From positions 48,050 through 112,049 of the forward strand of contig CAVWLW010000044.1 in the NCBI GenBank assembly GCA_963755715.1: a stretch of DNA of 64,000 nucleotides. Direction: 5' to 3'. Numbering within the stretch: position 1 is the stretch's first letter; the number at the start of each line of letters is the position of its first letter. This DNA is from an uncultured delta proteobacterium (GTDB taxonomy: Bacteria; Desulfobacterota; Binatia; UBA9968). A model generated the notes under the pieces. The model saw only the letters and a list, made by a program, of their open reading frames with translations. It made no database searches and was not told the origin of the DNA. Both the position numbers and the translations under genes were made by a program. Positions 2,942 to 63,198 of the stretch are shown one piece after another.

Positions 2942-3898
2942 ATGGAAACAGTCGGTTTCATCGGTCTTGGCAACATGGGCGGACCCGTCGCCGGACACAT
3001 TCAGAGCGCCGGCTTTCCGATGATCGTGTTTGATCTGCGCGAGGAAGCTACGCATCCGTTTGAAGAGCGCGGCGCGAAGGTTGCCGACAGCGTCTCAGAC
3101 TTGGCGCGCCGGAGCGACGTGATTCTCACGGCACTGCCGATGCCCGACGATGTGGAGCAAGTCGCCTGCGGCGCCGCGGGGATCATCGAAGGAATCAGAC
3201 CCGGCGCCGTCTACATCGACATCTCGACCAGCCCGCCGTCGCTCATTCGCAAGCTGGCACCCCTGTTTCGGGAAAAGGGCGCGCATGTTCTCGATGCGCC
3301 GGTCGCTTCGGGCCAACCCGGCGCCGCACGCGGCATTCATGAGGTGATGGTGGGCGGGGATAAAAACATCTTCGAGCGCGCCAAGCCGGTGCTCGAAGCG
3401 TTCGGCGACCAGGTGCTCTATGCCGGGCCGCTTGGTTCCGGGAGCATCTGCAAGCTCGTCCATCAGATGATCAACAGCACCCTATCCCAATCGATCGCCG
3501 AAGGACTCACCCTGGGCGTGAAAGCCGGGGTCGATACCGTAGCGCTCTGGGAATGCGTCCGGCGCGGTATGGTCGGACGGATGCATGTGCTGCACGTGCA
3601 AGTGCCGCAGACGGTTTTTCGCAATAATTATGCGACGGACACTTTCCCCCTCAAATTGCTACGCAAGGACGTCGGCTTGGCGACGGCGCTCGGCCGGGAA
3701 CTGAACGTGCCCTTGCCACTGGCCAACATCGCGGAACAAAAACTCGTGGCCGCCGTCAACCGTGGTCTGGGCGATCAGTCAGCGTACACCGTCACCTTTC
3801 AACTTCAGGAAGAAGCGGCGCAGGTTAAACTACGCGCCGACGGCATCGACCCGCAGCAGGCGGGAAAATATATTTCAACGAACCCGGAAGCGAAGTAA
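2942..3898 (+). CDS. NAD(P)-dependent oxidoreductase, 3-hydroxyisobutyrate dehydrogenase family
   Basis: VGFIGLGNMG, DAPVASG, GSGSICKLVHQ, LLRKDVGLA. Confidence 0.92.
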   Translation: METVGFIGLGNMGGPVAGHIQSAGFPMIVFDLREEATHPFEERGAKVADSVSDLARRSDVILTALPMPDDVEQVACGAAGIIEGIRPGAVYIDISTSPPSLIRKLAPLFREKGAHVLDAPVASGQPGAARGIHEVMVGGDKNIFERAKPVLEAFGDQVLYAGPLGSGSICKLVHQMINSTLSQSIAEGLTLGVKAGVDTVALWECVRRGMVGRMHVLHVQVPQTVFRNNYATDTFPLKLLRKDVGLATALGRELNVPLPLANIAEQKLVAAVNRGLGDQSAYTVTFQLQEEAAQVKLRADGIDPQQAGKYISTNPEAK

Positions 3899-3969
3899 AC
3901 GTTCGGCACCCATGCGCCCGAACAAACTGTTTAAAAGATCTGAACCGCTTCACAGATACGAGGTGATCT

Positions 3970-5103
3970 ATGGCCAACAACGGTTTCAAAGTTTTAGACA
4001 GCGACATGCACATCCTCGAGCCTGCCGATCTCTGGCAGCGTTACATCGATAAGAAATTTAAACACCGCGCGCCCATCGGCACCACCGATCATGTGCGGGA
4101 CTTGCGCCTTGTCGGTCCAGACGGCCGCGCCTGGGGCCGCCCGGCCGATCCGCCACCTGGAACACTTCCCCCGCCGGGTCACATTTTTCACAAGAATCAG
4201 AAACTCTTTAAAACTCACAACGAGCGTGGCTGGTCGTCACAAGTTCAGCTCGACGCCATGGAAGAAGAAGGAATAGATCTCGCTATTCTCTACCCGAGCC
4301 GCGGGCTGAACGTTCTGAGCATCCCGCAATTGGATCGCGAATTCGCCGCCGCGCTGGCGCGTGCCTACAATGACTGGCTTTACGAATTCTGCCAGGCCGA
4401 CCCGAGCAAGCTTGTCGGCGCCGGTATGATTTCGCCCTTCAACATCGAGGACGCGATCGCCGAGACGCGCCGTTGCGTCGAGCAATTAGGTTTTCGCGCG
4501 ATTTTTCTCCGCGCCAATATCGTCAATGGGCACAACTGGCACGAGCCCTATTACGAGCCGCTTTGGTCCGCACTCGAAGATCTCGGCGTGCCGCTCGGCT
4601 TTCATGAGGCGAACAACTCGGCGGCGCGCCAGGTCGGCGAACAGTTCGGTTATGATTTCATGCTGCGGCATACTTTTTCCCATCCCGTGGAACAGATGCT
4701 TGCCGTCGGTAGCTTCTGCGGCGGCGGGATTTTAGACCGCCATCCAAAACTACGCGTAGCATTTCTCGAAGGCAACTGCGGTTGGCTGCCCTTTCTCATG
4801 TGGCGTCTCGATGAACACTGGGAATTGTACGGCGATCAGTGGGCGCCACAGCTTCAAAATCCCCCGAGCTTTTACTTCAAGCGGCAGTGTTACGCGTCGG
4901 TCGAATGCGACGAGGAGCCAGCGAAGTACGCGATTGATTACCTCGGCAACGAGCGCTTGGTTTTTTCCACCGACTTTCCGCATGTCGATACCAAATATCC
5001 GAAGGCCGTCGAGCGCTTTCTCCAACTGCCGCTCACTGATGAAGACAAGCGAAAAATTCTCTGGGATAACTGCGCGGCTTATTACGGCGTCGTTGGAATG
5101 TAA
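3970..5103 (+). CDS. amidohydrolase_2 family protein
   Basis: DSDMH metal motif, ARAYNDWL, LGFHE, FLEGNCGW, FSTDFPH, KILWDN. Confidence 0.9.
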   Translation: MANNGFKVLDSDMHILEPADLWQRYIDKKFKHRAPIGTTDHVRDLRLVGPDGRAWGRPADPPPGTLPPPGHIFHKNQKLFKTHNERGWSSQVQLDAMEEEGIDLAILYPSRGLNVLSIPQLDREFAAALARAYNDWLYEFCQADPSKLVGAGMISPFNIEDAIAETRRCVEQLGFRAIFLRANIVNGHNWHEPYYEPLWSALEDLGVPLGFHEANNSAARQVGEQFGYDFMLRHTFSHPVEQMLAVGSFCGGGILDRHPKLRVAFLEGNCGWLPFLMWRLDEHWELYGDQWAPQLQNPPSFYFKRQCYASVECDEEPAKYAIDYLGNERLVFSTDFPHVDTKYPKAVERFLQLPLTDEDKRKILWDNCAAYYGVVGM

Positions 5104-5123
5104 TTGGAACGCGAGAATGGGTC

Positions 5124-6072
5124 ATGGCTAGAAACATTTTGGTGGCGCTTTGGCTTTTCGCCGAGATGTTATTGCCTCGGTCGTCCTCGGCGGCCGACGC
5201 GCAACAAAAAGTTCGGATCGGATATCCGTCGTCAGCCGTTTCGACCCTTCCCTTCGACATCGCCAAAGAGAAAGGCTTTTACACCAAAGCAGGTCTGGAG
5301 GTCGAATACATCCAGATGCGCAGCGCCATCGGCCCGCAAGCGATCTTGAACGGAAATATTAACTTCTTCACTTCGCCGCAAGCCGCGATCAACGCTGCGG
5401 TCGCCGGCTTGCCTCTCGTGGTCGTGCTGTCACTTTACCGCGACACGCCTGTGGGTGTTGGTGACAAGTAAAGACATTGCCAAACCCCAGGATCTCGCAG
5501 GCAAAAAGATCGCGATCTCCGACATCCGATCGTCGCCCTACTATTTCGCGCGCGCCGGATTGAAGAAACTCGCATTAGACGAGAAGCAGGTCAGCCTTGT
5601 CACCACCGGCGGGACTTCGAACAGTTTCGCGACGCTCGCAACCAATCAGGTAGCTGGGGCGGTCTTGAGCCCGCCGTTTGACGACAAGGCGGTTTCCTCC
5701 GGCTATAAGAAATTTCTTTTTCTCGGCGACCTCGCGGATATTCCCTACGTCGGACTGTTTACGTCCCAATCTGAGATTCGCAATAGCCGCGACCGGATTA
5801 GAAAAACTATATCGGCGGTGCTGGACGCGGTCGCATGGCAGCGCGCCAACCGCGCTGAAACTATCAAGATAATTGCCGCGCGCTTCAAAATCAGCGCAAA
5901 CGAGGCGGAACATTCCTACGAGACTATCATCGGCATTCTTTCGCCCGACGGCGCCATGGATTTGAAAAAAGTGCGCGGCTACTTGACGCTGCTCCGAGAA
6001 GAACGGCCCCTACCGGAAAGTTTGGATGCCGAGAAATTGGTCGATTTCTCGATGTTGCCATCGGCGCGCTAG
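5124..6072 (+). CDS. SsuA/THI5-like ABC substrate-binding protein (frameshift near 5450)
   Basis: ORFs 5124-5471 and 5455-6072 join into one protein with signal peptide, EKGFY..GLEVE and DLAGKKIAIS. Confidence 0.8.
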
Positions 6073-6138: not shown

Positions 6139-6600
6139 ATGATTGTCGCGGCGGCAAACGTCTTTGCGGCTGCGGACCCAGTGGAAGAAATCTTAAAGGA
6201 ACAAACCAAAGCACGGCAGGAGCAAAAGGCAAAAGAGCAACAACGCCAAGAACAAATCGAAAATTTGAAGCGCGACCGGGAAATCAATCAGGCGCAGCAG
6301 CAATTGGATCAGCTCAAGCAATCAAAGCCGGAGGCTTCTCAGCCGCAGCAACCCGACGCCGCGCAGGCGCAACGGCAATTGGATCAGCTGAAAAACGATC
6401 AGCAGCTGCAGCGTTTGCAAACCGATCAGCAGATCAATCGAATCCAGCGCGAGCCCGACCCTTTGCGCCAGCAACAGCAGATCGACAATTTGCAGCGCCA
6501 GCAGCGGATCGACTCTCTCCAGGATCAAATTCGCCGCAACCAAACTCAGCAAGATTTGGATCGCCTGCGGCAGCAGCAGAATACGAGGCCGACAAGGTAG
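6139..6600 (+). CDS. Gln-rich, probably secreted coiled-coil protein
   Basis: Hydrophobic N-terminus (in-frame upstream ASALCFWV + MIVAAANVFAA); QAQ.QLDQLK occurs twice, QQI..LQ repeats; true start may lie upstream across a frameshift. Confidence 0.7.
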   Translation: MIVAAANVFAAADPVEEILKEQTKARQEQKAKEQQRQEQIENLKRDREINQAQQQLDQLKQSKPEASQPQQPDAAQAQRQLDQLKNDQQLQRLQTDQQINRIQREPDPLRQQQQIDNLQRQQRIDSLQDQIRRNQTQQDLDRLRQQQNTRPTR

Positions 6601-6652
6601 AAAGCGGGTTCAAACCTGCCTACGAGTATTTGTCGATTTCGCCATCGACTGA

Positions 6653-7724
6653 TTAGCTTAATTTTTCTTTCAGCCATTGAACGATCACCGCCTGAGCATC
6701 GCCGCCGCCCATGTGACCGCCGGGATAAAAACGCGCGGCTTTCGGGGTGCCGTGTTCGAGCAAGAGATACATATCGGCGATCGGAAAGACGCTATCGTTG
6801 ACGCCGTTGACGCAGAGTAGCGGCGCGCAGGGTTTGTCGAGAATTCCCTGATCGATCAGCGAAAGCTTCGGCGCGTATTCGACCCATTCTTGCGCCGTGG
6901 AACGGCCGAAGGCGCAGGCCAAAGTCTCGGCTAATTCGAACGGATACTCACCGCGCTGCGCGTTGACAATCCAATCTTTTTGAAACGCAAAATGAGCCGG
7001 ACCGCCTTGGTTCACCGCCGCGCGCAATCGTGCCGCATGCGTGTGCGCGACTTTCGTCGCCCAATAACCACCCGTGCTGCCGCCATGAACGCCGACGCGA
7101 TCCGAATCGAGATCCGAACGACTCGCGATGAAGTCGAAGACTGCGTCCCATAGTCGTTCGCCGTTCTCCGACCCGGCGAGGGGCGCGTCGGCCACGCCGG
7201 GCATGTCGATCGCGAGCGGCGCCAGGCCAGCCTTCAAATATGGCTCGCTGGCGCGCTCTTCTTTGAAGGCATCGATGCCGCCCCAGACAACCACAACCGG
7301 AGGCTTGGCGACTCCTTGGGTTTTCGCAGGAGACCGACGGCATCTTGCCTTCTCCCGCGCGTCCGGCAAACGGCATCTCTACGCGCTCCAACGGTGGATC
7401 GAAATAGCGCGCGGCTTTAAGAAAATATTCCTGAGACTTTCGGTACGCGGCCAGTTTGCCGGGTGAATTCGGCGCCGGATAACGCGCCACGTGCTGACAG
7501 TCATAGGCAATCAAATACTCCCTACGGGCTGTATCGCTATCGCCCTTCGCTTCTGCCTGTGCGGCCCGCTCTTCGTGCGGCGCTGCCAACGCGCCGAACG
7601 CATTGGCCCATTCCTCCCGATCGACGGAACGCAGCCCGGTGATCACCGGCAGGACCTCTTGGAAAATTGTGTAGAGAAACGGATTGCGATTTTCTTGTGC
7701 GCGTTCGAACAGCTCGCGTTTCAC
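6653..7724 (-). CDS. alpha/beta hydrolase, FrsA/DHPON-hydrolase-like (frameshift near 7350)
   Basis: ORFs 6948-7724 and 6653-7369 join; GGID..K, IDMPG, GGSTGG nucleophile elbow, D and GGHMG. Confidence 0.85.
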
Positions 7725-7990
7725 TTCGTCGATCGGACGCGCTTCAAAGGCGCTCTCGCGTGTTTGTCATTATCGTTTCTCCAGCAGTCAAATTCAGACG
7801 AACCGAAGGTAATCAAAGCCGAACGATCAAGTCAACGAATAATTCGCATTGGTGAACTGCCGGACGATTGACAGGAACTCGCTTTCTATAGCACTAATGC
7901 TTTAGATGGCGTTCGAGCAAAACAATCAAGCAACCACTGGCGCGCCAAAACCCAGGGGTCGCCGGCGTCGAGACGCTGCCGCCCTTTGCC

Positions 7991-50914: not shown

Positions 50915-51139
50915 TTAGTGTTTATTGATGAGGCGCTTTCTTCTCCACACACTGAGCAAAATCAACCCAGCACCCAAAAGTACCATAGTCAACGGTTCGG
51001 GAACTCGCGTCAACAATTGGGAAAAGTCACTTAATGACTCTAGCGAAAAGGTAAGAGTAACGCCATAGACAATCGATGTCATCAAAACCGTCGCCACAAT
51101 AATCGAGCATACTCCTAAGATCAAATTCTTCGATGACAT
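50915..51139 (-). CDS. minimal PEP-CTERM sorting-domain protein (74 aa)
   Basis: C-terminal VPEPLTMVLLGAGLILLSVWRRKR; N-terminal hydrophobic signal; ATG at 51139 downstream of a sigma-54 site. Confidence 0.85.
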   Translation of the reverse strand: MSSKNLILGVCSIIVATVLMTSIVYGVTLTFSLESLSDFSQLLTRVPEPLTMVLLGAGLILLSVWRRKRLINKH

Positions 51140-51173
51140 TAATATTTCCCCGGTCCAATGACTATCGCTAACC

Positions 51174-51188
51174 GCAAAACCCGTGCCT
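51174..51188 (-). promoter_or_regulatory. sigma-54 -24/-12 promoter
   Basis: AGGCAC-GGGTT-TTGC. Confidence 0.75.
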
Positions 51189-51240
51189 ATCGGTAAGTAT
51201 TCGATAATGCGAAGAATCAACAAGTACCTTCTCATAAAAA

Positions 51241-52806: not shown

Positions 52807-53775
52807 TTAGGGAATATTTTGAACGATCAGCGGCCCCAGTAGTTTCGTTAGCGGAATTGGCAACTTTTGCCAGACACGAATCGCGGCTTGATATTTTGGA
52901 TTTGATGGACTCAAGTGGGGCATTTCGCACCCTTCATCCAACAGGTATTGCCAATAAAGCTGCACTGGCACCGCACCCCATTGCTTCTTGAAATTGTAGG
53001 TACCCTCATGCGGTGTCGAACGGCCAAAATCCAATTTGCTAAAGCCCTTGGCGATGGCAAAGCGGATCGCTTCCCAATAAAGCATGTTGTTTGGACAGAG
53101 CGCCTTGTAGTCGCTGACCGAAGAGGCCCAAGGAATTTCCAAAGTGCCTTTGAACCAGAAACCGATTCCGGCAGCAATCATTTTTTCGTCGTGATACACT
53201 GCAAAGATTCTACTCGAATCGGCGAAAGATTCTAGAATGTTGTGGAAAAAATGTTTCCCATAAATCGGCGTGCCCAGATCGCGCATATTGCGGGCGAAAA
53301 CGTCATAGAACCCGTCTAAAAGGTTCAGGTGACCGACGACAAATTTAAGCCGACTTTTCTGCGCCTTGCGGATTTGGTTCCGTAGCTTGGCATTAAAAAC
53401 TTGCCATTGCCCTTCGTCATCCGTAAGCAAATCAAGAACCATGGTAACTTTATGCTTGTTGGTTGGCAGCGCATCGAGCCCAATACCAAGGTGACGTAAC
53501 TCCACATGGGTAGCCTTAAGAGCCATGCGAAGCTGCTCGGCCTCGGATAACAAGAACGCGCGCTACCACGTCGTTATTACACAGCACCCCACCGTAGTTG
53601 ACAAACGGCATGGAAACCAAAAATTTCCGAAAAGGCGACCTATGGCAGCACACCCTGCCATCCCTCACACTCGTCAATAGCAGCGAGGTAATAGCAGCTA
53701 TGGCCAAAGGTCTCATTATCATGGCCTTCCATCGCAACCGGTGATAACTACCCTCGCCGCGTTCCACAAATGGAG
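52807..53775 (-). pseudogene. FemAB-related GNAT protein of PEP-CTERM systems, 5' third degraded
   Basis: Intact C-terminal part (MRDLGTP, NMLYW, DFGRS, FKKQWG). N-terminus is spread over frames: YHRLRW / TFGHSCYYLA..GVLP* / LVSMPFVNYGG. Confidence 0.75.
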
Positions 53776-53914
53776 TTAGAGAGTTCCCTTTATAATGGAT
53801 CCGTGACGAATGTGAGGCGGTATAGACCATTTGCAGCTCCGGTTCTTTCAAGCACGATAAATTTGACTCCGCCGTGATATATTCGTAACTGAACACCGGG
53901 AGTCTAGCCCATCT

Positions 53915-54385
53915 AGCCCCTAACAGAAATAGGCTTCGGTGAACTTCCGCGCTATTTCTTGATTGGTGCCGGAAACTCTTTTCTAAAAGAATCCGTTCAA
54001 GAATCGGCTAAGCTTCCGGTTCAACCAAAAGGTCGAGATCTCTGACTACTCTCAGTTGCGCCTCCGGATAGAATTCACTGGCTATCGAGAGCCTTTGAGC
54101 GCCGTGATGGGGGACAACGGGCCGGCGAATCGCTTTAATTCGCGAAGAGTCTCGAGCTGGATATTGTTAAGAGACGGACACTGAGATTCGCTGCCTCAAG
54201 TTCGCGCCACAATGGCGACTCGGACCTGCGCGAATCGGTTCGGCTGAGAAAAACAGAAACGATGGAGCAAAGCCCGTCTTTATTATCCAGTGTATCTGCG
54301 GGCCGTCAAAAGAGGATGGGCATGGAAGCCCATTCCCTTTAGCAATGCTGCGCAGTAATGCTAAACGACCAGAATGGGATTTAGA
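53915..54385 (-). pseudogene. nucleotidyltransferase (NTP_transf_5-like), frameshifted and truncated
   Basis: PITALKG / SIASEFYPEAQLRVVRDLDLLVEPEA* matches the LKG..Y..R..DxDLLV signature; several frameshifts and a stop. Confidence 0.7.
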
Positions 54386-54420: not shown

Positions 54421-55242
54421 CTAGAGGTCTTGAGCAAAGAAACCTTTCACGAGTTCACACGTGGCATGGAGATCAGCCGTGAGTAGCTCAAAACAGCGCG
54501 CCTGCGAAACGATCTCCATCGCAGCATCTAGGCCGTCTGCCGAATGGGCGATCGGATTGAGGGCGTTCATGAACAGACGTGCCGTCGCTTCGGCATTCCT
54601 CATAGGTTTCAGCACAGGCGCATCGGCTTCACCGATGAAGCGCAGAAAAAAAATGGCCTTGAGCGGCATCAGCTCCCTCACCGTTTGAGAAGGCAGGCAC
54701 GAAGTGGGCACATGCGCCGTCCGCGCAGTATAAATGGTTCCCGTCGGCAATGGATAGCCAGAGGGCGGGTCCGCCTTCAGGCAAAGAGCATGCGGAAATG
54801 GATGGACCCGCATATTGGTAATATCGATCGGCGCAAGTTCATCGCTTAGGTACTGTAACCCATGATGCAAAAGCCCCCAGGTCGTGGTCGATTTGCCATA
54901 GCCGGACGGTGCAACCAGAGCTATTGCGTAACCGTCTAAAGCGAGTACAGCCGCGTGAACGAAATAGAGGTCGGGCCTGAGTTTTTGGGTCTCAATGGTG
55001 AGATCTTTATCGAATTTATAGATAAAGTCACCACAGTCGCGCGCAATCTCAGGACTCGCTCCGTTTCGCGCTATATAAAGCCTTTCGGATGATGATTCGC
55101 GAGCGATTCGATAACTAATTTCCGCTTTTCTGATGGGGTGTTTAAACAAGCGATAAATGCGCGTCAGAAATGACGCCGCTTGTTCGTCGATGCACTCAAC
55201 GCGGATGTCACAACCAAAAACGCACAACTCGATGAGGCTCAT
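54421..55242 (-). CDS. HPr-kinase-related P-loop kinase
   Basis: FVHAAVL, APSGYGKST Walker A, YLSDELAPID, PFP.AL.LK. Confidence 0.85.
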   Translation of the reverse strand: MSLIELCVFGCDIRVECIDEQAASFLTRIYRLFKHPIRKAEISYRIARESSSERLYIARNGASPEIARDCGDFIYKFDKDLTIETQKLRPDLYFVHAAVLALDGYAIALVAPSGYGKSTTTWGLLHHGLQYLSDELAPIDITNMRVHPFPHALCLKADPPSGYPLPTGTIYTARTAHVPTSCLPSQTVRELMPLKAIFFLRFIGEADAPVLKPMRNAEATARLFMNALNPIAHSADGLDAAMEIVSQARCFELLTADLHATCELVKGFFAQDL

Positions 55243-55287
55243 TTATCACAAAGTGGATACTGCGCATTTGATTGCTATGACGAAAGG

Positions 55288-55464
55288 CTACTTGTCCTTC
55301 TTGTCTTTATCTTTTTTATCTTTCTTGTTCTCTCCTTCGCTATTTAGTCCATCCCCAGACCCTGCAGAGGCAAAAGAAAAGTTGGCGGACATGGTTAAGA
55401 TAATGGGCGTAATATAAGCCGCTTTTTTTATTATATCCCTTCTCGTCGTGCGTTCTTCAGACAT
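55288..55464 (-). CDS. 58-aa putative precursor peptide with twin-arginine / YxxP leader
   Basis: Hand translation MSEERTTRRDIIKKAAYITPIILTMSANFSFASAGSGDGLNSEGENKKDKKDKDKKDK*; AAAGGAG RBS 5 nt before ATG; fills the gap between PqqD and kinase genes. Confidence 0.85.
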   Translation of the reverse strand: MSEERTTRRDIIKKAAYITPIILTMSANFSFASAGSGDGLNSEGENKKDKKDKDKKDK

Positions 55465-55489
55465 CGATGCTCCTTTGTCTGCAATTTCT

Positions 55490-55813
55490 CTAATATGTTT
55501 GCAAGAGGTTTAGTCTTCGTAATTTCGTAACAATTCCCTCGACATCTTGGCGACCCTTAATAGAATCAATCTCGTATGCGTTTGCGAGACGTTCAGCAAT
55601 CTCGTCAATTGTTAAGATGCCGTCGCAACAGTTCCAGATAAAAGTCGCAGTCGGATTAAGCTGATGAAGGTGTCCTTCCTGACGATTCAATATCACCGTT
55701 TCTCCGTCGATAGTTCTGTACGTGACATCTGGGCGACGTTGCGGGCGCGGCTCGCCGGCTATTCCGTTGCTTTGCGACGGGTTGCCATCGCTTTCAGTTT
55801 TTCCAAAATTCAT
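55490..55813 (-). CDS. PqqD family / RiPP recognition element
   Basis: IDGETVIL, LNPTATFIW..CDG..TI.EI...L...Y, DV...L...NLL. Confidence 0.92.
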   Translation of the reverse strand: MNFGKTESDGNPSQSNGIAGEPRPQRRPDVTYRTIDGETVILNRQEGHLHQLNPTATFIWNCCDGILTIDEIAERLANAYEIDSIKGRQDVEGIVTKLRRLNLLQTY

Positions 55814-56485: not shown

Positions 56486-56743
56486 TTAAGAAGAGCTGTT
56501 ACCATCGACTTGCTGTACTAGCCTTCGTAACTTTGCGCGCTCTCTAAGAAGCAGCTGATACTCTTTGTCCCGCCTCATCCCCAGCAGAAGCCACGATTTA
56601 AATACTTTTCGACGGCACGGCTCCGAACAAAAAACGCCACGGCGATGGCCGTTTTTCTCCCCCTCTACGATCCGCCACAAGGGCACTGTGAATGCGAGCT
56701 TACACCACAGACATCGACAATTTATGATTTGCTTGCGCTTCAC
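56486..56743 (-). CDS. small basic Cys-motif (putative Zn-binding) protein
   Basis: CLWC ... FCSEPC; GTGA overlap with the upstream stop. Confidence 0.55.
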   Translation of the reverse strand: MKRKQIINCRCLWCKLAFTVPLWRIVEGEKNGHRRGVFCSEPCRRKVFKSWLLLGMRRDKEYQLLLRERAKLRRLVQQVDGNSSS

Positions 56744-57384
56744 GAATCATCCTGCGAGGGCGTTTCTATGCAAAGGTACTCGGTATATGGTGACAATCCG
56801 ACGTTGTTAGCGGCCGCAATGCGGTAGCAATAGGTATGACTTCTTTTCAAATCTTGATCGGTGAAGGAAGTTTGATCCGCTGCCAATACTATACCCATCT
56901 CCATTATATCCACCCCCATCGGATTAATCAGTCGACGTTCAAGAAAGTACTGGGTTTCATCCGGCACATCTTCCCAAGCAATACCGATCGATCCCGTGGA
57001 AACGAATATCGTGCGCAGTCCGGCGGGCGTGCTCGGGGCGCTCAACGCCGGTAGCGCTGGGACCTGCGGAAGTGTCTTACAGGCGATATTGCTGTCGGCA
57101 GAGTCTGCAGCCGCGTTGAACGCAAAAACCCGAAAACAAAACATGTCACCGTAATACCCGCTGAGCGTGAGTCTATACTGCGTTATATTAGGGCCGACTG
57201 TGCCTATCTCGGTAAAATCGCCGCCCGTCGGCGACAGCATCTCTATGCTAAATCCATCCTCGTTATTTGAGTTATCTTGCCACGTTAATGTGGCGGACGA
57301 TTGGACTTGCGCTGAAAACGTTGGCGCGGCAACAATGCCGCCGCAGAGAATAAAGATACAAGGCACACACACAAAAATTTTCAT
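56740..57384 (-). CDS. secreted protein with two fibronectin type III domains
   Basis: Signal peptide; LTWQDNSNNEDGF..FCFRVFAFN; AWED..YCYRIAA.N..G.S. Confidence 0.85.
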   Translation of the reverse strand: MKIFVCVPCIFILCGGIVAAPTFSAQVQSSATLTWQDNSNNEDGFSIEMLSPTGGDFTEIGTVGPNITQYRLTLSGYYGDMFCFRVFAFNAAADSADSNIACKTLPQVPALPALSAPSTPAGLRTIFVSTGSIGIAWEDVPDETQYFLERRLINPMGVDIMEMGIVLAADQTSFTDQDLKRSHTYCYRIAAANNVGLSPYTEYLCIETPSQDDS

Positions 57385-57432
57385 GGGGTGACTCTCGATC
57401 GAGGCAGACTTTGTAAATTGCAGCCACTCCAA

Positions 57433-58328: not shown

Positions 58329-60508
58329 ATGAATTCTACTTCCGGTCTCAGCCGCATTTTCTTTTTACTCTGCGTCTTTACGACGATCACTTGGCAGAGC
58401 GCAGCGATGGCCGCGCAGCTGCAATTAACCTGGAGCGACAATTCCACCGACGAAACCGGTTTCAAGGTCCAACGCAAGACCGGCACCACAGGCACTTATG
58501 CTGATATCGCTTCAGTGGGAGCCAATGTTACTTCCTATACGGACGCAAGCTTGATGAATGCCACCACATACTGTTTTCGTGTGAATGCGTTCAATGCCAA
58601 CGGTAATTCGCCATACAGCCCTGAGGCTTGCGGGACAACGGCGTCAACGATACAAACGTTCTCCCTATCAGTAGCCAAAAACGGAACAGGAACTGGAACC
58701 GTGAGTAACTCTTCCGCAGGCATCAACTGCGGCAGCACCTGCTCGGGAACTTTTAACAGCGGCACCGTTATCGCTTTAGCGGCGACCGCCGCAGCCGGAT
58801 CAGTCTTTGCCGGCTGGACTGGGGACAGTGATTGCAGCGACGGCTCACTCACCATGAACGCGAGCAAATCCTGCACCGCCACATTCAATCTTCAGCCCGC
58901 TACAGCGAACACCGTCTCTACCAATATCGCCAATAACGCAGTATTAAGTGGCTCGTCCGTGATCTGGACAGCGACTGCTACTGGGTCGCCGGTCCGGGTC
59001 GAGTTTCTTATTGATGGCGCGCTTTCCTGGACGGAGTTGAGCGTCACCTTATCAATTCAATGGCGATCCCTCGGGCCTTTTGAATACGACAACCCTTACC
59101 AATAGTTCTCATCAGTTAAAGGTCCGCGCAGTCTATGCGGATAATTCGACAGCCGAACGAACCGTAACCGTGACAGTTTCAAACACGTCGACTCAGCAAT
59201 ACGCACTTAGCATTAGCGTGGTAAAAACCATCACCAGCGGCGGGACAGGTAACGGAACGGTCACCAGCAGTCCCGCAGGTATCAACTGCGGCAGCAGTTG
59301 CTCGTCATCCTATAATAGCGGCACTTCAGTTACCTTGACCGCCACGCCCGCCACAGGCTCCACCTTCGCTGGTTGGAGTGGCACCGGTTGCACAACCGGC
59401 TCAGTTACTATGAACGCCAGCAAGACCTGTACAGCGACCTTTAATCCACAAGCTCCGCAGACCTTGACTCTTTCAATCACGAAAGCAGGCACGGGCAGTG
59501 GAACGGTGACCAGCATTCCGGCGGGCATCAATTGTGGCAGCACCTGCTCGGGTTCTTATAATAGCGGAACTGCGATCGCTTTAACTGCCACAGCGGAAAC
59601 CGGATCGACTTTCGCCGGCTGGAGCGGCACCGGTTGCGCCAGCGGTACGGTCACTATAAATGCTAATACGAGCTGCACGGCGACGTTCGAATCCGCAGTC
59701 AATCAGCTCCAAAGCCGGATCGGTGTCTTTCGCCCAAGCACCGGAGAGTGGTTTTTGGACGATAATGGCAATGGCCAATGGAACGACAGGTGTTGACCTT
59801 CATATCACTTCATTCGGCCAAAAGGGCGATTTTCCAGTGGTCGGAAGCTGGAGTGGAATCGGGGTTAGTAACATCGGCACCTTCACCCCCGCGACCGGCA
59901 CATGGCAGCTCGACACCAATGGAGACGGAGTCTTGAATTGCGCGGTCGATACGTGCGTAAACTCCTTCGGCCAGTCTGGGGATTTACCGGTAACGCGGGA
60001 ATTATCTGGTCTCGGTGGCAGCATCATCGGAACGTTCACGCCGCAGACCACCGTGATGATCAATGGGCGAAAAGTCGTCAAGCGAGGTCTCTGGAACTTT
60101 GATATTAATGGGAACAGCAAGTTCGATGGTTGTTCAGTCGATGAATGCAATAGCTTTGGTGATGTCGATGAACTACCCGTGATTGGCAATTGGAATAACA
60201 CCGGAATAGAAGAAATCGGACTCTTCCTTTCAGCCAAAGGACAGTGGTATTTGGACAGCAATGGAAATGGAAAGTGGGACGGCTGCAACGTTGACAAATG
60301 TCTCGGACGGTTTGGGACCAAGGGAGACTTCCCTGTAGTTGGGGACTGGGACAATACGGGTAAAATAAAGATCGGGGTCTTCCGTCCAAGCACCGGAATG
60401 TGGTATCTCGACATGAACGGAAACGGCAAATTGGATAGCTGCACAGTCGATGCGTGCTTAGGTCCCTTCGGCCAGCCGGGTGATCTGCCGGTGGTAGGAA
60501 AATGGTAA
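58329..60508 (+). CDS. secreted multidomain surface protein: Fn3 + three Cys-containing InlB-B/Flg_new_2-like repeats + Ig-like + C-terminal GDW/FG-GAP-like repeat domain (frameshifts near 59045 and 59790)
   Basis: Three ORFs chain together; GTGTV.S.PAGINCG..C repeats; IGVFRPSTG.W.LD.NG.G and GD.PVVG.W repeats. Confidence 0.8.
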
Positions 60509-60646
60509 TTTGCTGCTCTTCGGGCAAACAAAATGTTGTGTCAGGTGATTCGGTTTCTTGCGATAGGCACAATGAAAGGGTTGCACAAGATCAATAGATT
60601 CGCTGAGGTGGGCTCCATAGCAAAATTATGTTGGTTAGGAGAGAAA

Positions 60647-63198
60647 ATGATCATGATAAATTTATCACCAACAAGAATGATTAATATGATGAAGAAGCTC
60701 GCCTCACCCGTATCAAAGGCCTGCTGGTCTGAACGGGAAGAACGTACGGTCCTTAGGAATCAATTACTGTGGACAAGAATAGCGAAAAGCATACGCCGTC
60801 TGGCGATTGCTTTGATTTTGTTGTCTCCATTGACAGTTGTGGATGTGTCTTACGCCGCTGGGCTGGTATCTTTGATGACTTTGAGTACGGTACGACAAAT
60901 AAATGGGAGCAAGATAGCCCTCACAACAAATGTCCGGTTGTCACATCGGCGACCGACGGAGGACTAGGGCCACGCACTCCGGTGCGAACATGGCAGGCGG
61001 TTCCGGCAATTGGGGTGGCGACTACGAGTCGCTAGTTATCAACTCGATTCCTTACACAAACGAAATATTCTATCGAGCGTGGTCACACATCGACAGGAAT
61101 GTCGAAAGGACCGACGGGTCTCCCTAAAGATGCTCCGAATCTTCTTCTGGAGCGGGGATCAGAGTACGTATAGGGATATGTTTGAGGATACTACCAGTAC
61201 ACTAGGATTGAGTAATCGTGGTAATGCCGGAAATGTTACGCTTCCCACCTATTGGGGCGAGGCTCAAGGGGATACTTCTGGGTCTATCACTCAATGGCAC
61301 AAAGTAGAGTATTATTTCAATCACGCAACGGGAAAATCCGGGTCTGGCACGACGGCCAAATGGTTCGCAATAACACGGTGAGTTTCAACGGTCAAAAGTG
61401 GCTGCCATTTTCTTGGCTCAGACTGGTCCGATGCGCACGATGCACGAATCATGTGTATTTCGACAACATTGAGATCTATTCAGACACTGGGACCGGAGCG
61501 ACTGGGTCCAGATATCTGACACTAGCGGTATTATCCAAGGAGGCACTCCATCCCCTCCAAATCCTCCATCAAACCTAACTATCAGTATGAACAAAGCCGG
61601 CACGGGCAGCGGTACCGTGACCAGTTCTCCCTCGGGCATATTAACTGCGGTGCAACCTGCTCGGGTACTTTCAGCAGCGGCACGTCCGTCGTTTTGACCG
61701 CTACGGCCGCATCCGGCTCAACCTTCGCCGGCTGGTCCGGCACCGGCTGCACCACTGGAACTGTTTCGCTGAGCGCCGACACTTCTTGTACCGCAACCTT
61801 CAACACTCAAGCCGCGTCAACCTTACGCTCGCTGGCCAAAGCCGGCGCCGGCAGCGGTACCGTAACCAGTTCTCCCGTCGGGCATTAACTGCGGCTCAAC
61901 CTGCTCAGGTACTTATAATAGCGGTACCTCGGTCGTGTTGACCGCTACGGCAGCATCCGGCTCAACCTTCGCTAGTTGGTCCGGCACCGGCTGCACCACA
62001 GGTACCGTGAGCTTAACCGCTAATCGAGCTTGCACCGCGACCTTCAATACCCAACCCGTGTCAACCTTCTCGCTCACTATGGCCAAAGGCGGCACCGGCA
62101 GCGGTACTGTGGGCTCAGTTCTCCCTCGGGCATTAACTGTGGCGCGACCTGCTCAGGTACTTTCAACGGCGGCACGTCCATCGCTTTGACCGCTACACCC
62201 GCGGCTGGCTCAACCTTCGCCGCCTGGTCCGGCACCGGCTGCACCACTGGCACCGTTTCACTGAACGCCAACACGTCTTGTACTGCAACCTTCAATACCC
62301 AACCACCTCCACCGGGGAATATCGCACGCAACGAGTGCGCGAATCCTCCTCCCGGAACAATCTTCTGCGCGGATTTCGAAGGCACAAACCCTAAGGCCAG
62401 TTTTGATGACTACGACGGCAACCTTGATACCGAGAACCCGGTGCTCGCGGATACCGGACCGGCCAATGATGGCTTAAACAAGGTCGTTCGATTCCGCGCC
62501 CCTGCCGGCCAAAGTGGCGGCGCTGACCTCGTGAAGGTATTGTCCAGCAGCTATGACAAGCTTTATGCCCGCTGGTATCTCAAATACGAACCAGGCTTCA
62601 ATTTTAGCGCGCCCAATCATGGCGGCGGGTTAGCAGCGGGGATCGAAATTTTATCGGTACATCAGGAAATCGGCCAAGCGGGAGTGATTTCGCGGGGTTT
62701 TACGTACAGTATCAAACTAATACGGCCTTACCATTTGCGTATAGCTATTACAGAGGAATGTACGAAGATTGCGGCGCGCAAGGCAGTTCCTGGGGCGATT
62801 CATTGCCATGCGTGTACGATACGGGTGCAGGCTATTGCACAAAGCCCCAGGACCGACCGTCAGTGCCTTTACCCACTTTCCAAGCGGGACAATGGTACTG
62901 CGTCGAACAAATGGTGGATATGGGAACTCCAACCTCCACAGCCACATCCGCGAACGGCCGTTTAACACTCTGGCTGGACAGCCTGCAATATGGTGATTTT
63001 CCAAATCTATGGATAAGGACAGCGGCGTCGCTAAAGCTCCAATCCTTGTGGCTGACCCTGTTTCAGCTCGACGGAACGCACTCGACTGTTGGCGAGCTAA
63101 TTGACAATGTAGTTGTGTCAACTCAACGCATAGGTTGCGGTGGAACGACGCAACTGGCACTACCCGCCGCGCCAACGGGTTTACAGCTAATCCCCTGA
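60647..63198 (+). CDS. large secreted protein: beta-jelly-roll-like domain + three Flg_new_2-like repeats + polysaccharide lyase/Cip1-like domain (many frameshifts; possibly a pseudogene)
   Basis: Fragments across frames: signal ..VSYAA, FDDFEYG, WHKVEYY..IRVW.DG, YFDNIEIY, three GSGTVTS.P.GINCG repeats, FCADFE, YARWYLKY, WYCVE, DNVVVSTQRIGC; start uncertain. Confidence 0.6.
61590..62300 (+). repeat. three tandem ~240-nt coding repeats
   Basis: Near-identical GGCAGCGGTACCGT..GGCATTAACTG..GGCTCAACCTTCGC..TCCGGCACCGGCTGCACCAC..ACCTTCAA units. Confidence 0.85.

Follow-up and report, generated by a model that had tools for sequence, protein, structure and literature searches.

Candidate diderm counterpart of linear polyphosphorylated peptides: a peptide family whose leader combines a twin-arginine motif with a putative recognition-element-binding motif

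A small gene on the reverse strand of a 64,000-nucleotide (nt) stretch of DNA from an uncultured delta proteobacterium (contig CAVWLW010000044.1 of assembly GCA_963755715.1; the whole stretch is called the window) encodes a peptide of 58 amino acids (aa). It is located between the genes for a PqqD-family recognition element (RRE) of ribosomally made peptides with post-translational modifications (RiPPs) and for an HprK-like P-loop kinase. The number of its homologues, far beyond chance, identifies it as a real, conserved gene, and its product is very probably the substrate of the cassette. On balance, we narrowly favor a longer chain, in which the product, as the precursor in a diderm version of the pathway to the linear polyphosphorylated peptides (LPPs) known from Bacillota, would be bound by the RRE, modified by the kinase, exported by the twin-arginine translocation (Tat) system, and cut by signal peptidase. 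Coordinates are collected in Table 1.

Results

A peptide family with a conserved leader and a hypervariable tail

The peptide ORF starts 25 nt past the PqqD stop codon, and 45 nt separate its end from the kinase ATG. A word-indexed search of 5.8 billion proteins returned 24 homologues of the peptide, with E-values down to 6e-25. A family profile built from an alignment of 29 diverse members matched 1266 representatives (clusters at 50% identity) with a threshold of E ≤ 1e-3, of which 606 passed E ≤ 1e-10. All counts per 150 refer to the top 150 of the 1266 representatives, which were without exception small (39-139 aa).

Conservation was limited to the N-terminal ~36 residues. In the 29-member alignment, R9, Y17, P20, I22, T24, G35, and S36 were invariant, and the family motif can be written as [ST]-R-R-x-F-[ILV]-K-K-A-A-Y-V-A-P-x-I-L-T-L-x-A-x-P-[AS]-[FY]-A-x-x-G-S. 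The second arginine of the twin-arginine pair was present in 150/150 representatives, the pair being RR in 140 and KR in 10. The tyrosine of the YxxP block was found in 148/150 (Phe in the other two), its proline in all 150, and so was the Gly-Ser at positions +18 and +19 counted from this tyrosine (Y+18/+19). The spacing between arginine pair and tyrosine was constant in 142/142 members; Y+13 was Ala or Ser in 135 and Y+15 was Ala in 138 of these 142. The tails following the Gly-Ser ranged from 7 to 96 aa (median 38). They were hydrophilic and of low complexity, G, K, R, D, S, P, and N being abundant, and lacked a conserved column both among the best 150 members and in the 29-member alignment. 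Their last residue varied as well, Ser being terminal in only 9/150.

A preliminary description of this DNA, made from the letters of the window, had pointed out T-R-R-D-I-I-K, a hydrophobic stretch, Y-I-T-P-I-I-L, ASA/G, and a Lys/Asp tail; each of these elements is there. Y17-I-T-P20-I-I-L23 sits inside the hydrophobic stretch, and the segment A15-A34 is uncharged. The same description left open whether leader or tail is conserved and made its Tat reading depend on the arginine pair. Conservation proved to lie in the leader plus the single Gly-Ser, and the pair is kept, in one of its two forms, in all of the best 150 members.

Association with PqqD and kinase genes across bacterial lineages

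A second, paralogous trio of PqqD, peptide, and kinase genes was detected on contig C69 of the same genome, accompanied by an intact gene for a nucleoside triphosphate (NTP) transferase of the NTP_transf_5 family (PF14907; NTase). Scanning one genome per species yielded 14 further loci from six or more bacterial lineages, so that 16 loci could be compared when both copies of this genome were included. The 14 loci come from metagenome-assembled genomes (MAGs) labelled Pyrinomonadaceae, Vicinamibacterales, beta-, gamma-, and deltaproteobacteria, Polyangiaceae, Rhodospirillales, and Planctomycetes. The peptide gene adjoined both the PqqD and the kinase gene in 15 of the 16 loci (13/14 further loci and both own copies). 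The exception, L007, carries a KR variant with a Gly/Pro-rich tail (2945-3178), and its 7.1 kb hold neither PqqD nor kinase.

NTP_transf_5 was present in the fetched flanks of 10/16 loci. L006, from a Vicinamibacterales MAG, encodes a fusion of an NTP_transf_5 enzyme with a PqqD domain alongside a free-standing PqqD, and three precursor genes with different tails stand in tandem (features at 3968-5422 and 6294-7952). Beyond PqqD, kinase, and NTase, no further family was common to the 16 loci. Among 20 flank proteins sampled from 10 loci, 12 were of polysaccharide type, including glycosyltransferase, UDP-sugar dehydrogenase, epimerase, sulfotransferase, Wza-like export, and FemAB proteins; none of the 20 belonged to signal peptidase or ABC transporter families. 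The cassette is thus usually set in a polysaccharide locus, and the earlier proposal that it works with no dedicated protease or exporter agrees with the 16 loci and the 20 flank proteins, where no such gene is conserved beside it.

Within the phylum, the kinase was found in 1/18 genomes of the same genus and in 0/12 of the same order. Another 200 genomes sampled from the phylum gave no match to the peptide profile; this search scored up to 30 candidates in each genome, and its sensitivity for short peptides is doubtful. The sole carrier of the same genus (G214:C30:583452-585660; L024-L026) has an intact kinase copy of 50% identity and, directly beside it, a second, broken copy (one TGA, two TAG).

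PqqD-type RRE and its putative docking site

When the PqqD family profile was compared with solved structures, the closest relatives were B1 proteins of lasso peptide systems and LppB, the RRE of LPP clusters (TfuB1, 2.3e-11; TbiB1, 8.3e-11; LppB 9x8z, 5.6e-8; PbaB1, 1.4e-7). Residues N33 and D70 of LppB are described as fixing the kink at P-13 of the leader and hydrogen-bonding its Y-16, and the published RRE-binding consensus is given as [Y/W]xxPx[L/V/I/A/F/Y] (PMC13381572). PqqD N53 (28/28 sequences) and D90 (at least 90%) align with these two residues; likewise, Y80, E81, L52, and L103 align with LppB Y60, E61, L32, and L83. The Y-x-x-P-x-I block, proposed earlier to be an RRE motif, fits the published consensus, and its putative partner retains the Asn and Asp that contact YxxP, which argues for docking at this site.

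A complex prediction for PqqD residues 25-107 with peptide residues 1-42 gave a score of 0.33, as compared with 0.01 for the best of three controls; the runs shared at least 85% of contacts, and the predicted local distance difference test (pLDDT) of the partner was at least 51. The mark used for such predictions is reached by 58/80 solved complexes and 2/110 mismatched pairs; at scores of 0.60 or below, it was reached by 7 of those 80 solved complexes together with both of the passing mismatched pairs. The score may reflect memory, as similar complexes have been solved. A single-sequence search of the PDB with PqqD listed designer 'Cake' and 'Scone' repeat proteins, an artefact of many weak repeats of one short stretch.

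Twin-arginine motif and predicted cleavage site

Tat signal peptides follow the consensus S/T-R-R-x-F-L-K, with which the family n-region, [ST]-R-R-polar-F-[ILV]-K-K, agrees at each position. It is followed by ~17 uncharged residues, a Pro at -4 relative to the predicted cleavage site, and [AS]-x-A. A Lys at Y+9, in the c-region, was found in 45/142 members; a basic residue in the c-region is a feature of Tat signals. KR, the only replacement of the arginine pair in the best 150 members, is to our knowledge the one natural variant of the Tat pair. Several of the 29 aligned members showed weak matches to NCBIfam or Pfam models, namely TIGR01409 and Iro (three members each) and MelC1, PenB, formate_TAT, QcrA, UCR_Fe-S_N, and PF10518 (one member each). 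Most of these matches are to families that bear Tat signals. The host genome contains two TatC genes (239 and 226 bits). Taken together, the family pattern suggests that the leader probably works as a Tat signal.

The preliminary description had placed cleavage at ASA/G. This site is present in the window peptide, but the site conserved across the family, [AS]-[FY]-A, lies two residues earlier and predicts a cut after A32. Both candidate sites (after A32 and after A34) occur in the window peptide; the former would release 26 aa and the latter 24 aa. In its central point, that a Tat signal and an RRE-binding motif overlap in one leader, the preliminary description is backed by the comparison of homologues, in which arginine pair, YxxPxI block, and [AS]-[FY]-A are conserved together.

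Kinase and comparison with LPP clusters

Searching the PDB with the kinase sequence gave only P-loop/ABC noise (best E = 0.0014), so a fold search was used. Foldseek, run with the AlphaFold2 model of the kinase (pLDDT 93.1), retrieved PEP carboxykinase and HprK/P structures (3tqf, 2qmh, 1kkl). Residues H96, G114, G116-K117-S118 (Walker A), and D134-E135 were invariant in 15 homologues.

LPPs were described in Bacillota, to which they are said to be restricted, from clusters inside capsule loci (Popov et al., Nat Commun 2026; PMC13381572). Their clusters encode (i) the RRE LppB; (ii) the HprK-like kinase LppK; (iii) the NTP transferase LppN; (iv) the leader peptidase LppS, a homologue of signal peptidase I (SpI); and (v) the MsbA-like pump LppD. 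In the precursors, the N-terminus is conserved and holds the motif YxxPxVLxHQxIxFETxxS, whose Y-16 and P-13 bind the RRE, and the C-termini vary. LppS cleaves after T-1 (Y+15), and LppK polyphosphorylates S3 (Y+18) of LppA (PMC13381572).

As described there, LPP clusters have in common with the present cassette the set of RRE, HprK-like kinase, and NTP transferase, placed in capsule or polysaccharide loci. A discrete RRE (its profile being one that matches LppB) and an HprK-like kinase with PEPCK and HprK/P folds stand beside the precursor, which likewise combines a conserved N-terminus with a hypervariable C-terminus and shows a patchy phyletic pattern. The agreement extends to spacing: YxxPx[V/I]L stands 15 residues before the cleavage position, and a Ser follows 3-4 residues into the core. 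As for the LppN-type enzyme, the window holds just a pseudogene, and intact versions were found in the C69 paralogue and in 10/16 loci.

The differences concern export and hosts. No SpI-like (SipW-type) LppS and no MsbA-like LppD accompanies the cassette, neither family being shared by the 16 loci or represented among the 20 flank proteins. In place of the F-E-T of LPPs, the leader carries [AS]-F-A, preceded by a twin-arginine N-terminus. The hosts are diderms (MAGs labelled Acidobacteriota-type, Proteobacteria, Polyangiaceae, and Planctomycetes) as opposed to Bacillota. As the Bacillota relatives possess both LppS and LppD, the absence of counterparts fits a replacement of the two by Tat and signal peptidase.

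By analogy with LppA, Ser36 is probably phosphorylated. The preliminary description had considered that the conserved leader itself might be the modified product; this appears less probable than a modification at the invariant Ser that closely follows the cleavage site.

Proposed pathway

In the proposed pathway, the cytoplasmic PqqD-type RRE would bind the leader block Y17-x-x-P20-x-I-L and present the peptide to the HprK-like kinase, which would phosphorylate the invariant Ser36 in the manner of LppA Ser3. Where the cassette is complete, the NTP_transf_5 enzyme may decorate the peptide further. The modified peptide would leave through the general Tat system, and ordinary signal peptidase I would remove the leader after A32 (or A34). 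These last steps are proposed because the leader also combines an uncharged core and an [AS]-F-A site with its twin-arginine motif, and because the LPP-specific peptidase and pump, whose work they would do, are absent from the loci examined. The predicted product is a short, hydrophilic, Lys/Asp-rich phosphopeptide in the envelope of an exopolysaccharide-making cell.

An extension of this pathway, which we put forward tentatively and consider doubtful, is that the RRE gates export: by gripping Y-x-x-P-x-I-L, it would hide the signal from TatBC until Ser36 has been modified by the kinase (and the NTase), after which Tat and signal peptidase would finish the process. Proofreading chaperones of the TorD/DmsD type bind Tat signals in the cytoplasm until the cargo is ready. 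The likeness is one of idea only, an analogy, since their fold is unrelated to PqqD and their cargo is a cofactor enzyme.

Evidence against the pathway and alternative explanations

Several points weigh against the proposed pathway. Phosphorylation, export, and cleavage are all steps that we infer, and the complex prediction supports binding of the leader by PqqD only weakly. The window peptide matched neither of the curated Tat models TIGR01409 and PF10518, TIGR01409 touched just 3/29 members with a best E-value of 0.03, and the window subfamily has Ile at the position of the Tat-consensus Phe. A polyphosphorylated, highly charged cargo may not pass through Tat. The invariant Ser stands at Y+19, as opposed to Y+18 in LppA. 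The family is very patchy within the phylum; a similarly patchy pattern is described for LPPs (PMC13381572). Matches to the models of a related system defined in NCBIfam fall below the curated cut-offs (see below), and the NTase pseudogene and a split FemAB gene next to it indicate that the window cassette may be decaying.

In a first alternative, the leader is solely a docking tag. Its twin-arginine block would then be recognized by RRE, kinase, and NTase without forming a working Tat signal. The peptide would stay cytoplasmic, leave by another route, or be anchored in the membrane by its uncleaved hydrophobic segment, with the modified Ser at the membrane surface. The h-region is indeed far more conserved than in ordinary signal peptides, the fixed spacing from RR to Tyr suits one composite enzyme-recognition element, and the lack of a curated Tat match for the window peptide points the same way. 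We nevertheless regard this explanation as unlikely, because all elements of the Tat consensus are present at the family level ([ST], RR, Phe at +2, hydrophobic residue, Lys, uncharged stretch, [AS]-x-A), because the first Arg gives way only to Lys, and because no conserved exporter or peptidase is found nearby, whereas the Bacillota relatives have both.

The second alternative concerns the window copy, which could be a decaying relic whose peptide, PqqD, and kinase genes are still open while the pathway is dead and the C69 paralogue is the functional one. The NTase remnant occupies the 525-bp gap past the kinase. In a tblastn comparison, residues 13-226 of the intact C69 NTase aligned with it at 26% identity (E = 7e-12); two stops interrupt the reading frame of the remnant, whose 3' part is truncated and runs into an ORF encoding the N-terminal part of a FemAB-family protein. 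The FemAB gene itself is split (TIGR03019 positions 86-330 in ORF 52807..53553 and 15-85 in the overlapping ORF 53516..53896), owing to either a frameshift or a fault of the assembly around 53516-53553. In L003, the closest locus that comes from a named record, the genes follow each other as PqqD, peptide, kinase, NTase, FemAB; given this order and the NTase remnant, the ancestor of the window copy was a complete cassette. An intact PqqD-peptide-kinase-NTase cassette is present on C69.

A dead pathway at this locus is nonetheless improbable in our view. The three genes are intact, a strong ribosome-binding site precedes the peptide gene, and peptide relatives at 79-93% identity keep every invariant leader residue. 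Deletion of the NTase in the LPP study left the detected products unchanged, which makes a kinase-only pathway conceivable (PMC13381572); moreover, the C69 NTase could act in trans. The PqqD and peptide genes are covered by contigs from four RNA libraries that bear the label soil, one contig (X17) matching 55300-55490 with 1/191 letters different and another (X15) bridging the two genes at 55388-55530 with 14 letters different. They are a hint only, as they attest presence in RNA libraries and not transcription, DNA carry-over being possible. Among the RNA-library contigs compared, none lay over the kinase gene (54421-55242), which is uninformative on expression. Pieces of 33 nt from RNA libraries at 55283-55338 were discarded as low-complexity matches running into unlike sequence. 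Counts of predicted promoters and terminators were no higher than in shuffled sequence (4 versus 2.7 and 2 versus 3.0); for this reason, a hairpin at 54333-54316 was not used as evidence.

That an ordinary small Tat-secreted protein lies between PqqD and kinase by chance is very improbable: L007, with its isolated KR variant, would fit, but the adjacency recurs in 15/16 loci across several phyla, and, with Gly-Ser as the only conserved 'mature' residues, there is no folded cargo domain.

A lasso peptide precursor, with Gly35 as ring residue 1 and a Glu at position 9, can be virtually dismissed. The YxxPx[I/L] leader motif, an RRE most similar to lasso B1 proteins, and acidic residues at positions 7-9 of many tails speak for it, but those residues follow from tail composition, the penultimate leader position is occupied, according to where cleavage occurs, by Ser33 or Phe31 and not by Thr, and no PF00733 cyclase or PF13471 B2 protease is encoded on either cassette contig (C44 and C69; the matches in the genome are on C5, C57, C30, and C75) or common to the 16 loci. 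The lasso-ring compatibility noted in the preliminary description was abandoned on these grounds. A double-glycine-type (G-S) leader cut by a peptidase-ABC transporter was also dropped, as no such transporter is conserved in the 16 loci or found among the 20 flank proteins.

Relation to other known systems

Phosphorylated and phosphoglycosylated lasso peptides are known from paeninodin (PadeK), ThcoK, and pseudomycoidin (PsmK/PsmN) (PMC9266682). In them, an HPr-kinase homologue acts on the linear precursor, a nucleotidyltransferase homologue acts on phospho-Ser, and the RRE is of B1 type, features that the present cassette would share. The cassette differs in lacking a cyclase or B2 protease at the cassette, and its conserved Ser lies near the leader-core junction instead of at the C-terminus.

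Housekeeping export combined with signal peptidase, in place of a dedicated RiPP exporter and protease, has two precedents. Bufferin precursors carry a Sec signal that is dispensable for modification (PMC11626156), and lipidated macrocyclic peptides use the lipoprotein pathway (PMC13056109). These systems have Sec or lipoprotein signals and MNIO-type chemistry, whereas the present leader is of Tat type and holds an RRE-binding motif. RiPPs with Sec and lipoprotein signals are thus already known. In the literature searched, supplements excepted, LPPs were not found outside Bacillota, nor was a RiPP precursor with a Tat signal. The RRE-Finder paper (PMC7470986) and a structure-based RRE survey from 2025 (PMC12710340) contain no mention of HPr, kinase, twin-arginine, exosortase, or PEP-CTERM.

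Kinase and PqqD also match weakly the two models of the NCBIfam 'HPr-rel-A system', kinase A (TIGR04352) and a PqqD-family chaperone (TIGR04353), with 72.6 versus a curated cut-off of 200 bits and 19 versus 35 bits, respectively. The HPr-rel-A system is linked with exopolysaccharide/PEP-CTERM loci. For the peptide, neither NCBIfam nor Pfam holds a curated model.

Features and gene neighborhood in the window

Table 1. Features of the cassette and of adjoining genes (window coordinates)
Feature	Position	Strand	Basis
Precursor peptide gene, 58 aa (conserved leader, variable Lys/Asp tail)	55288..55464	-	Homologue and profile searches
Shine-Dalgarno sequence AAGGAG	55470..55475	-	Read from sequence; 5 nt before ATG
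Twin-arginine motif T7-R8-R9-D-I-I-K13 (Tat-type n-region)	55426..55446	-	Family consensus
Y17-x-x-P20-x-I22-L23-T24, RRE-binding-type motif within the hydrophobic core of the signal	55393..55416	-	Conservation and published motif
S30-F31-A32/S33-A34/G35-S36, predicted signal-peptidase site(s) and invariant Gly-Ser (S36, candidate phospho-acceptor)	55357..55377	-	Family columns, LppA comparison
Hypervariable hydrophilic tail G37-K58	55291..55356	-	No conserved column in family
PqqD-family RRE, 107 aa	55490..55813	-	PF05402, E 6.6e-17
HprK-like P-loop kinase, 273 aa	54421..55242	-	TIGR04352, E 2.7e-20, 72.6 bits (curated cut-off 200)
NTP_transf_5 nucleotidyltransferase remnant (pseudogene)	53810..54364	-	PF14907, 26.3 bits, 1 TAG
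FemAB-family XrtA/PEP-CTERM-associated gene, split in two ORFs	52807..53896	-	TIGR03019

On its 3' side, the cassette is followed by the FemAB-family gene, an epimerase gene, and a gene for a small PEP-CTERM protein (50915-51235, reverse strand; PF07589, E = 7e-6), which marks an exosortase-type exopolysaccharide locus. An ORF of 85 aa (56486-56743, reverse strand) lies immediately upstream of the cassette; with its two Cys pairs it is zinc-ribbon-like, it is without a match to any Pfam or NCBIfam family, and it overlaps the stop of an ORF with a fibronectin-III domain (56740-57432). Further upstream, 58329-62965 on the forward strand contains overlapping ORFs in different frames, which encode repeated modules of ~90 aa (…GTGSGTV…INCG…C…TATA…GSTFAGWSG…) as well as Gly/Asp-rich repeats (…GDFPVVGDW…). 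The region gives the impression of at least one very large surface protein built of repeats and interrupted by frameshifts or mis-assembly.

Implications

If the proposed pathway holds, the peptide family would supply the missing substrate for a widespread chaperone-kinase-nucleotidyltransferase cassette of exopolysaccharide loci, and the LPP family would reach beyond Bacillota into several diderm lineages. It would also mean that a RiPP pathway can shed its private protease and pump by placing a general export signal in the leader. A Tat signal would double as an enzyme-recruitment tag, a case relevant to how unfinished Tat substrates are kept from export. Should the gating extension be true as well, export proofreading would be built into a RiPP class that depends on Tat, the first of its kind; ~25 residues would be read by two machines in turn, and the exopolysaccharide matrix would receive hypervariable phospho(glyco)peptides from a diderm LPP counterpart of more than 1000 sequence clusters. 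The constant placement of the cassette in slime and capsule loci points to a role in the biology of the biofilm matrix.

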